This document shows positions 49,996 to 52,593 of a stretch of 64,000 bases of DNA, one piece after another. The translations under genes and the position numbers were made by a program. The stretch is from the sequence record PZ738962.1, one strand, 5' to 3'. The DNA comes from a phage. The stretch's first letter is position 1; each line of letters opens with the position of its first letter. The notes beneath the pieces were generated by a model. It worked only from the letters and a program-made list of their open reading frames with translations, did not search any database and had not been told where the DNA came from.

Positions 49996-50254
49996 AAATC
50001 GCCCTCAGTTCTTTATAGCCTCCAATGTGCTCGTTGTCAATGAATATCTGGGGGTATACAAATCGGAGGCTCTTTGAGTTCAGCCTCCCCGCCAGTTCTT
50101 CAATCATATCACGGTCGGGAATAATGTCAACCCCGACCTGCTTGAATACTGGTTTAAGTGTATACGGAATACCCAGATCATCCAGTAGCTTCATTGCACT
50201 AATACAACCATAACAATGATAAGCCTCTTTCGGTATGCCGTATATCTCGATCAT
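49985..50254 (-). CDS. glutaredoxin/thioredoxin-like protein (NrdH/NrdC-like, CYGC active site)
   Basis: 89 aa; CxxC active site near N-terminus, C-terminal IGGYKELRAxY glutaredoxin signature. Confidence 0.75.
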   Translation of the reverse strand: MIEIYGIPKEAYHCYGCISAMKLLDDLGIPYTLKPVFKQVGVDIIPDRDMIEELAGRLNSKSLRFVYPQIFIDNEHIGGYKELRAIYDY

Positions 50255-50748
50255 TTCTCAGCCTTTAATCTTTCTAGTTCTTCTTCCAGTTCCTTGATCC
50301 GTTGGTCACGTTCAAAGTCACGCTGCAACTTAGTGGCGAATACTCGTTTAAACTGATTGTAATCATCGATTTTAAACACTTCTTCTTCGCCATAGCGACG
50401 TACAGAAACTTCGTAGTTATTGAATAATTGTTCCAACATTGCATCAGTAGTCAGTTCTGACGACACCACTTTAAAATAACGTTCTTCTGATTGCAAAAAC
50501 CAGTTGTGCGCGTATTCCCGTACATCATCAACATCTCGACAGGTGTATGTTTTTCCATCAATTTCAATCGCAGAAACATATTCGATATCTGAAGCAATTT
50601 TTTCAAAAGCGATAACTTTAAATGTACGGTCACCGATAAAGTCTGCTATTGCATCATTTGCAACACTGGTTGCAAATGCTTTCCGCGCTCGCTCGTTTTT
50701 CCACTGATAGGTCATACCAACAACAAACATATTACCATCAACAAACAT
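50251..50748 (-). CDS. paralog-family protein A1 (WKxxxAxxxF...IEIDG...ERYFKVV module)
   Basis: start at ATG 50748 with GAGGA upstream; 5' end contains an 18-bp perfect tandem duplication; shares module with 50750..59044 paralogs. Confidence 0.55.
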   Translation of the reverse strand: MFVDGNMFVVGMTYQWKNERARKAFATSVANDAIADFIGDRTFKVIAFEKIASDIEYVSAIEIDGKTYTCRDVDDVREYAHNWFLQSEERYFKVVSSELTTDAMLEQLFNNYEVSVRRYGEEEVFKIDDYNQFKRVFATKLQRDFERDQRIKELEEELERLKAEK

Positions 50749-50749
50749 A

Positions 50750-51574
50750 TTACCATCCTCGCTCTTTACCAATCAAAAATTCAACTTCACGACGTTTAAT
50801 GTCTTCTTGAAGGTCTTTAATCTTCTGGCGATCTTGCATGATTTCATCCATCTTGTCAAGTGCCGCAATGAAATCATCGAAACGTTCAAAGGTTTTACCT
50901 TCATTTGCTTCGCCAAATTTAACCATTGTCAGGCCGTAACGACTACTAAACAGACGTTTCAACTGTCCAACGATCTTAGAATCAGTGGTTATAACTTCCA
51001 ATTCTTCTACTTCACGAAAGAATTTTCTATCAGAATCAATAAACCAGCTAGTTCCTTTATGGTCTCTATCTTCGGTTGCGCTCATTAGAGTATGGTCTTT
51101 ACCATCAATTTCAATTACATCAATTTGCCCACATGGACGAACATTTTTAACAGTAAAAGGTCTATAATTTATTGCTCGTGCAATAACATAATTAAGATTA
51201 GATACGTTTTCAGCATAATGACAGAAGTCGGTCATAGCATTCGCATCTTTCCAAGTATAAGTTTTACCAACTTCCCATTTCTGGGGAACTTCTTCAACTT
51301 CACGAAAGAATTTTCGATCGAATGGACTAAAGAAATATGTTGCAGTCCAAATGTCTTTTCCTGTAGCAGTTTTCGCCGTATGATAAACACCGTCTAGCTC
51401 TATTGCATCAATCCAACCGTTATCATCGATCTCGATGATGGTAAATGGCTTGTCACCAATAGCTGCACTAATATCGCTGTTAAGTGGAGAAAGAACACCT
51501 TCTCCGTTAGTAATAAACTCAGTTTTAGCGTTTTCATCTTTCCAGGTGTAGGTTTTACCAATTTCCCATTTCAT
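50750..51574 (-). CDS. paralog-family protein A2 (two tandem copies of the module)
   Basis: 274 aa; MKWEIGKTYTWKD...FDRKFFREVEE then QKWEVGKTYTWKD...DSDRKFFREVEE; coiled-coil tail. Confidence 0.6.
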   Translation of the reverse strand: MKWEIGKTYTWKDENAKTEFITNGEGVLSPLNSDISAAIGDKPFTIIEIDDNGWIDAIELDGVYHTAKTATGKDIWTATYFFSPFDRKFFREVEEVPQKWEVGKTYTWKDANAMTDFCHYAENVSNLNYVIARAINYRPFTVKNVRPCGQIDVIEIDGKDHTLMSATEDRDHKGTSWFIDSDRKFFREVEELEVITTDSKIVGQLKRLFSSRYGLTMVKFGEANEGKTFERFDDFIAALDKMDEIMQDRQKIKDLQEDIKRREVEFLIGKERGW

Positions 51575-51586
51575 AATATATTCCCC

Positions 51587-52051
51587 TTAACCGATTTTAT
51601 CAAGTTCGTTTAATGCTTTCTCTGCTTCCTGTATAGCTTGCACCCTTTCCGGCATTTTGTCAAGAAAATCTTTCAACTCTTCAAAACTGGAGATATGACG
51701 CAATGCGTTAGCACCGATAGCCGCATGTGATTTGCATTCAAAGCGGATTTTATAATTATCCATCGCCAACTTGAGAAGATCAATTAATTTAGATTCTTCT
51801 GGAATAATAATTTCTTCAAATCTGCTACGGTCATGATCCAGAAACCAACAAGATAGACCTACATCGGTTGAACTCATATAAGTTCCATCATGAAGATAAA
51901 CAGACCGCACGTATCCTTTTTTCGCATCAACCGACGCAACTTTAAACGGTAATCGCAGATATTTCAAATAATCAACATCATACCATTTAAAAAATTGGTT
52001 TGCATCTTTTACATCTTTCCACGCATAGGTCTTACCAGCTTCCCATTTCAT
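51587..52051 (-). CDS. paralog-family protein A3
   Basis: start set to ATG 52051 (MKWEAGKTYAWKD) by paralog alignment; track ORF starts 5 codons upstream. Confidence 0.55.
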   Translation of the reverse strand: MKWEAGKTYAWKDVKDANQFFKWYDVDYLKYLRLPFKVASVDAKKGYVRSVYLHDGTYMSSTDVGLSCWFLDHDRSRFEEIIIPEESKLIDLLKLAMDNYKIRFECKSHAAIGANALRHISSFEELKDFLDKMPERVQAIQEAEKALNELDKIG

Positions 52052-52055
52052 AATA

Positions 52056-52583
52056 TCATCTCTCATTTTTGATACGTGATTCTAATTGGATCATACGGTC
52101 GCGCGTTTGTTTGTATTCTCGGATAGCACCGATCCGGCTAGGCATACCATCCAGTACGCTCTTAATACCTTCTAGGGTAGTGATTTTAGCAATGCTATTA
52201 TGCAACCCCATCTTATCGATCAACTGAATGTCGTAGGCTTCCATAAGCAGACCCAGACGTTCTAAAGTTAGGTCTTCTTCTTTTTCTTCAGAATCTGGAA
52301 TCTTAGGTTCAATAATAACTTCGGTAAAGAAACGACGCTCACCCGACCAAAACCACACACCGGAACAGCCAATAGGGGATTCTTTTAACGTCATAGAGTC
52401 GAAATCACTACCAATAATAGTAATTTCTCTAACATCACCATCATCGTCAAGGTCTTCTACCCTAAACGGGCGACCAGCCAACAAGTCAACAATACATCTG
52501 TTAATAGACGACGAAAATTTAGTCAGTTCGGCTTTCGACGCTTCGCATTCAATCTTGTAAGTTTTACCAACTTCCCATTCCAT
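52056..52583 (-). CDS. paralog-family protein A4
   Basis: start at ATG 52583 (MEWEVGKTYKIE) with TTGAGGTG upstream; ERRFFTEV motif. Confidence 0.55.
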   Translation of the reverse strand: MEWEVGKTYKIECEASKAELTKFSSSINRCIVDLLAGRPFRVEDLDDDGDVREITIIGSDFDSMTLKESPIGCSGVWFWSGERRFFTEVIIEPKIPDSEEKEEDLTLERLGLLMEAYDIQLIDKMGLHNSIAKITTLEGIKSVLDGMPSRIGAIREYKQTRDRMIQLESRIKNER

Positions 52584-52593
52584 AATAATCACC

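Follow-up and report, generated by a model that had tools for sequence, protein, structure and literature searches.

An in-frame 18-bp tandem duplication at a stop/start junction in a Krischvirus paralog family

How did the junction between two neighboring genes of a T4-type phage come to hold the same 18 nucleotides twice over, and what, if anything, does the extra copy do? The question is raised by phage record PZ738962.1, of which a stretch of 64 kb, hereafter called the window, was analyzed. Does the extra copy lengthen a protein? Or, is it a spacer that leaves the protein as it was? Is it kept by selection, or is it an artefact of a single assembly? We consider it likely that it is a heritable in-frame microduplication, which arose in one slippage or recombination event, was spread by recombination, is translated from the first of two start codons, and is close to neutral.

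The Repeat and Its Gene Context

On the plus strand, positions 50722-50757 consist of AACAAACATATTACCATC twice in tandem. All genes of this locus lie on the minus strand, where the unit reads GATGGTAATATGTTTGTT and occurs head to tail at 50757-50740 and then at 50739-50722, with 18 of 18 positions identical and no spacer between the copies. A partial third copy, GTTGGTA, follows at 50721-50715 and matches GATGGTA at 6 of 7 positions. Tandem Repeats Finder describes the array as 50715-50757, with a period of 18, 2.4 copies, 96% matches, and a score of 79, the highest of any tandem array in the window. A search with the 18-mer, allowing up to 3 mismatches, returned just the two adjacent exact copies, while the shuffle control gave an expectation of 0.08 matches, and two or more were seen in 0 of 100 shuffles; the repeat is thus far beyond chance. 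The perfect duplication described in the initial annotation is therefore borne out by the sequence, the repeat finder, and the shuffles, except that the array runs 7 nt past the limits given there, into the partial third copy. Either copy 1 or copy 2 may be the inserted one.

The features of the locus are as follows:

50740..50757, minus strand: copy 1 of the unit GATGGTAATATGTTTGTT; holds the last Trp codon and the TAA of the upstream gene, and the first ATG
50722..50739, minus strand: second copy of the unit, with no differences from the first; holds the second ATG, which is the sole start position in single-copy relatives
50715..50721, minus strand: partial third copy GTTGGTA; also present in single-copy relatives, where it makes an 18-nt-spaced direct repeat, the probable template of the duplication
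50756..50760, minus strand: GAGGA, resembling a Shine-Dalgarno, with 7 nt between it and the first ATG; GAGGT in T-type relatives (see below)
50750..50752, minus strand: TAA stop of the upstream 274-aa paralog, within copy 1
50746..50748, minus strand: first in-frame ATG (ATG1), the most likely start, of a 165-aa protein beginning MFVDGNMFVVGMTYQWK
50728..50730, minus strand: second in-frame ATG (ATG2), of a 159-aa protein beginning MFVVGMTYQWK; the start of single-copy relatives
50251..50748, minus strand: downstream paralog with the duplication at its 5' end; RB49ORF048c orthologue, phrog_5347, unknown function
50750..51574, minus strand: upstream paralog, 274 aa, with two N-terminal domain repeats; RB49ORF049c orthologue, phrog_5347
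51587..52066, minus strand: third tandem paralog; RB49ORF050c orthologue, phrog_5347
52056..52592, minus strand: fourth tandem paralog, adjoining nrdG; RB49ORF051c orthologue, phrog_5347

The gene order, i.e., nrdG, four hypothetical genes (RB49ORF051c-048c), and nrdH, is the same in the window and in its relatives. Read on the minus strand, the junction is …GAG CGA GGA TGG TAA t ATG TTT GTT GAT GGT AAT ATG TTT GTT GTT GGT ATG ACC TAT CAG TGG AAA…. The upstream protein ends in …GKERGW, its TAA follows, and ATG1 comes one base later. This protein is unaltered by the duplication, as its gene still ends at the same TAA. ATG1 and ATG2 share a frame and are 18 nt apart, so that both products end at 50251. 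The Shine-Dalgarno GAGGA is not duplicated: just its last two bases fall in the repeat.

Choice of the Start Codon and Effect on the Protein

Which of the two ATGs is used? The ancestral start corresponds to the position of ATG2, as indicated by the RB49 annotation, by the phrog_5347 profile, whose position 1-2 falls at the second Met, and by the alignment of the paralogs. However, the whole ancestral initiation context stays with ATG1, which has GAGGA 7 nt upstream and the TAA next to it. The arrangement TAA-t-ATG, with GAGGA inside the upstream gene, is the geometry of translational coupling, and coupling is predicted here. The predicted energy of the duplex with the anti-Shine-Dalgarno is -9.3 kcal/mol for ATG1, -3.1 kcal/mol for ATG2, and +0.9 kcal/mol for a third ATG. 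Because ATG1 alone retains both the Shine-Dalgarno and the stop-start coupling, it is the likely start. The two ATG contexts had earlier been called equivalent; this holds for the 9 nt before each ATG, which are identical, but not for the stop codon and GAGGA, which precede ATG1 alone, nor for the duplex energies.

With ATG1 as the predicted start, the downstream protein most likely gains six residues, MFVDGN. The ATG1 product begins (M)FVDGNMFVVGMTYQWK and the ATG2 product (M)FVVGMTYQWK. Compared with RB49ORF048c and phrog_5347, the protein of the window would differ by these six extra N-terminal residues. The N-terminus had also been read as DGNMFV-DGNMFV. The first DGN of that reading precedes ATG1, and the N-terminus would be MFVDGN-MFVVG…; the reading stems from a mechanical open reading frame that begins at TTG 50772, inside the upstream gene. 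This TTG was rejected as a start codon: it would entail a 23-nt overlap with the upstream gene, no relative is annotated in this way, and the profile starts at the second Met.

As for the structural consequence, an AlphaFold2 model built from a shallow five-sequence alignment has a mean pLDDT of 77.5. The extension appears to sit on a disordered, flexible tip at the N-terminus, before the first conserved beta-strand is reached, because the pLDDT is below 50 at residues 1-5 and the first strand of the model comes only at residues 13-16. The six-residue change is probably neutral or nearly so, which is our assumption. The predicted local mRNA fold is also near-identical with one copy or two (-34.8 vs -35.8 kcal/mol).

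The public annotations of the carriers are divided. Among the four that were checked, the start is ATG1 in MIZ4, phiS, and ELT4, and ATG2 in ELT3; the duplication thus explains why the protein is given as 165 aa in MIZ4 and phiS and as 159 aa in ELT3. The third paralog (51587-52066) likewise has two candidate starts, MRDDIMKWEAGK… and MKWEAGK…, and is annotated with 465 nt in RB49, MIZ4, and phiS and with 486 nt in ELT3 and G5211; therefore, ambiguity in N-terminal length is not unique to the duplicated gene.

Distribution among Relatives

Every one of the 59 phage records that match a 1.45-kb region of this locus, at 92-99% identity, is Krischvirus, and the window itself is Krischvirus (RB49-like, a T4-type coliphage of the Straboviridae). 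An 81-nt query across the junction sorted all 59 records by the span of the match. Two copies, with the full 81-nt span, are present in five (the Escherichia phages MIZ4, MIZ5, ELT3, ELT4, and phiS); 34 have one copy and a 63-nt span; and the other 20 combine one copy with a divergent downstream allele, so that the match stops at query position 46-48. The single-copy form therefore accounts for 54 of the 59, 12 of which were read directly. The two-copy allele was also found in one metagenome-derived contig of IMG/VR, UViG_3300045988_033703 (L014).

Direct reading of the junction covered 18 fetched sequences: 17 GenBank loci and the IMG/VR contig. Two copies were read in the window, ELT3, MIZ4, phiS, ELT4, and the contig; one copy in RB49, G5211, KMB43, LF73P4, W115, pEJ01, FL04, and PTE-Eco09, and in the ECD7-type phages FL37, ECD7, PHB13, Brandy, and Makalu002. 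The duplication allele of the window is thus shared by MIZ4, MIZ5, ELT3, ELT4, phiS, and the contig, which makes it a heritable feature rather than one peculiar to the window. Over 81 nt across the junction, MIZ4, MIZ5, and ELT3 show no difference from the window, and ELT4 and phiS show a single substitution. The second bases of the repeats are A-A-T in the window, ELT3, and MIZ4 and T-A-T in phiS, ELT4, and the contig, the T for A in copy 1 being synonymous in a Gly codon. ELT4 departs further from the window, in that its upstream gene is without one domain repeat and its downstream gene is frameshifted.

No three-copy form was found in IMG/VR, and since just two Krischvirus junctions were found there overall, sampling beyond GenBank is thin; the exact junction-specific pattern had no match in the metagenome collection. 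A full-text search of the literature found no paper that discusses this duplication, which is already present in several public genomes.

Age and Spread of the Allele

Is the duplication a recent event, as first proposed? Its presence in five GenBank genomes of different isolations, and in a contig whose downstream gene is 8% diverged, speaks against this. For two of the carriers, the country of isolation is given: Russia for MIZ4 and China for phiS.

The carriers do not form a simple clade, an option ruled out by trees of the locus itself and by how similar the genomes are in a block far from it. In the tree of the downstream gene, carriers are intermixed with non-carriers (G5211, FL04, KMB43, and LF73P4) at 0.8-2.5% divergence. 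In a 24-kb block of replication genes, carriers are 96.6-96.8% identical to the window, while non-carriers reach 98.1% and are its closest relatives. The carriers also have diverged flanks. These patterns suggest that the duplication is most likely a segregating local allele, moved between genomes by homologous recombination; repeated loss or recurrent origin could produce the intermixing instead.

Origin of the Duplication

What did the junction look like before it was duplicated? Single-copy relatives read G[A/T]TGGTAATATGTTTGTT-GTTGGTA, a layout that can be written as G[A/T]TGGTA-ATATGTTTGTT-GTTGGTA: a 7-nt direct repeat whose spacing of exactly 18 nt equals the length of the unit. Two types exist. 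In the T-type, GTTGGTA…GTTGGTA, the repeat is perfect (7/7), as in RB49, G5211, KMB43, and PTE-Eco09; in the A-type, GATGGTA…GTTGGTA, it matches at 6/7 positions, as in LF73P4, W115, pEJ01, and FL04. In the upstream gene, the variable base falls in a Gly codon, where GGA and GGT are synonymous, and single-copy genomes are polymorphic for it too.

Short direct repeats are, from classical T4 genetics, the usual substrate for slippage and misaligned recombination, and Streisinger-type strand slippage or misaligned recombination was mapped classically in the T4 rII and lysozyme genes. The present case resembles the short duplications of T4 between direct repeats in that there is no spacer, the single-copy allele exists in relatives, and a repeat lies at unit spacing. 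It differs from the rII and lysozyme events in that it is no laboratory mutant but a natural polymorphism, shared by several isolates from the wild. Slippage or unequal recombination, much as the initial annotation had proposed, is the most plausible origin to judge from the sequences, because single-copy relatives hold the 6/7 or 7/7 repeat at 18 nt.

One detail departs from the classical picture. The middle copy is GATGGTA in every carrier, and this A is not what an A-type ancestor would leave after a crossover within its perfect 5-nt microhomology: a crossover in TGGTA would give GTTGGTA as the middle copy, so that either the breakpoint lay at a 1-nt (G) overlap or there was a second event, i.e., a point change or a conversion after a T-T-T duplication. 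A route from a T-type ancestor needs one extra T-to-A change for the middle copy.

The history may thus have run as follows. A single-copy ancestor would already have carried the G(A/T)TGGTA repeat at 18-nt spacing, and the duplication would have arisen from it, most likely once, by replication slippage or unequal recombination. By the shortest path, an A-type ancestor would have given A-A-T through a breakpoint at the 1-nt overlap beside the TGGTA homology, and T-A-T would then have come from A-A-T by recombination with a T-type upstream sequence. Alternatively, T-T could have become T-T-T via the 7-nt homology, which is perfect in the T-type, and then have undergone two more changes. The duplication would now be segregating as a local allele, put on several genomic backgrounds by homologous recombination, and initiation at ATG1 would add MFVDGN to the tip of the protein, before its first conserved beta-strand.

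Alternative Explanations

Could the duplication be an 18-nt untranslated spacer? Initiation would then stay at ATG2, now farther from the upstream stop and the Shine-Dalgarno, leaving the protein unchanged and its translation lowered or uncoupled, or both ATGs would serve and two isoforms would be made. The identical 9 nt before the two ATGs, the choice of ATG2 by the submitters of ELT3, and a predicted unpaired probability of 0.47 around ATG2, against 0.33 around ATG1, all lean this way. However, ATG2 is without a Shine-Dalgarno, as its weak predicted duplex indicates, the exact ancestral geometry of Shine-Dalgarno, stop, and start stays with ATG1, and three of the four annotated carriers checked start there; we regard the spacer as unlikely. 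The last of the questions asked at the outset, whether the repeat is an artefact of the assembly or sequencing of this genome, was raised in the initial annotation as a general possibility and has next to no probability. An identical duplication occurs in a metagenome-derived contig and in five GenBank records that come from no fewer than three submitter groups, and 18 bases are far below any read length, so that assemblers do not create such repeats; these independent assemblies exclude it, and the comparison with related phages that had been suggested as a check has returned the same repeat.

Selection is a further proposal. It strikes us as very improbable that the duplication is selected in part of Krischvirus, whether as a source of two initiation sites (isoforms or altered expression) or as a doubled AU-rich repressor operator at the start codon; if it were, persistence on diverged backgrounds would reflect function, not hitch-hiking. 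We give slightly less credence still to its being kept as a doubled translational-repressor site at the ribosome-binding region or as a useful N-terminal tag. What would favor selection is that the duplication persists unaltered even where the adjacent gene has diverged, by up to 8%, and that the middle copy has the same A in all carriers. Yet carriers make up just 5 of the 59 records, and the junction is equally conserved in single-copy genomes, including alleles that are 14-19% diverged, where the conservation is explained by the overlapping stop, Shine-Dalgarno, and start. Promoter, terminator, and Rfam signals are all absent at the repeat, and the frameshift in the duplication-bearing gene of ELT4 suggests either a dispensable gene or a sequence error.

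With regard to regulatory elements, no site resembling a sigma-70 promoter or an intrinsic terminator overlaps 50715-50757, and Rfam gave 0 matches at E<=1 in 50200-51300. The creation of a new promoter or terminator by the duplication was accordingly rejected, as no consensus site overlaps the repeat. A structured RNA at the repeat was rejected as well, in view of the lack of Rfam matches and of an mRNA fold that the extra copy leaves nearly unchanged.

Significance

The duplication is an ordinary, tolerated in-frame length variant, which lengthens a protein of unknown function by six amino acids at most, and its biological weight is small. It does offer a clean case, found in nature, of an in-frame duplication that is flanked by microhomology and lies where stop and start overlap in a T4-type phage, as well as of the spread of such an allele across recombining genomes. 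Recombination mapping in Krischvirus can make use of it as a minor haplotype marker. What the phrog_5347 family does is not something on which the 18-bp duplication bears.

The phrog_5347 Family and Its Remodelling

The gene had been described as belonging to a paralog family, and rightly so: all four tandem genes match phrog_5347 (E = 2.6e-52, 8.8e-94, 1.7e-59, and 2e-66), and their N-terminal coding regions also repeat at the DNA level, as a 69-nt repeat family. The alignment of the four paralogs reveals a common N-terminal motif, W-E-x-G-K-T-Y-x-W-K. The downstream, duplication-bearing protein covers the full profile (E = 2.6e-52) and is 77% identical to RB49ORF048c. Pfam holds no family for any of the four. 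For the downstream protein, the PDB gave no sequence match and no significant fold match, and in BFVD its predicted fold matches uncharacterised proteins of T4-type phages only.

The 274-aa paralog has weak matches to PHROGs labelled "goF mRNA metabolism modulator" (phrog_13003, 2.3e-10; phrog_2980, 8.1e-10; phrog_8944, 1.8e-8). These matches are confined to this paralog, the duplication-bearing protein having none. They hint that the N-terminal domain of this widespread T4-type phage family may be distantly related to T4 GoF (goF/comC-alpha), a modulator of Rho-related mRNA metabolism.

Is the family undergoing remodelling, as was also claimed on the strength of the repeat? In the relatives it is, and the claim is supported more by the lack of a domain unit in ELT4, by the mosaic alleles that meet at this junction, and by the divergent second domain of FL04 and the IMG/VR contig than by the 18-bp repeat. 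The 274-aa paralog (50750-51574) contains two N-terminal domain units, with an internal repeat at 51002-51031 and 51290-51319 (spacing 288-291 nt). In ELT4, the upstream paralog (L015 495-1031) has 178 aa. It is shorter by precisely one 96-aa unit, and the breakpoints fall in FSPFD|RKFFREVEE, a motif that is repeated; either recombination between the internal repeats deleted the unit, or ELT4 retains the state before the unit was duplicated. The duplication-bearing gene of the same phage (L015 1033-1529) is annotated as two CDSs, as a run of A is one A short (GAAAAAATTGC to GAAAAATTGC) at a site corresponding to about 50607-50612 of the window. Either the gene is dispensable and truly frameshifted, or the homopolymer was misread in sequencing.

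The stop/start junction is also a mosaic boundary, between window positions 50251-50772 on one side and 50750-51574 on the other, and the conserved junction GGTAATATGTTTGTTG marks the switch point. The downstream gene falls into three allele groups, i.e., window-type, ECD7-type (~14% diverged), and RB49-type (~19% diverged), and in most of these phages the divergence of the upstream gene stays below 3%. A further pattern is seen in FL04 (L018 198-1031), a non-carrier, and in the IMG/VR contig, a carrier: in both, the second N-domain of the 274-aa paralog is strongly divergent, and the first domain and the C-terminal half are nearly identical to those of the window. The pattern resembles the replacement of a stretch the size of one domain within a single gene. 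Finally, in PTE-Eco09, the orthologue of the 274-aa paralog (L011 377-1200) is annotated as two CDSs, 377-943 and 1024-1200, which suggests a disruption of the gene or a sequencing error in the record.
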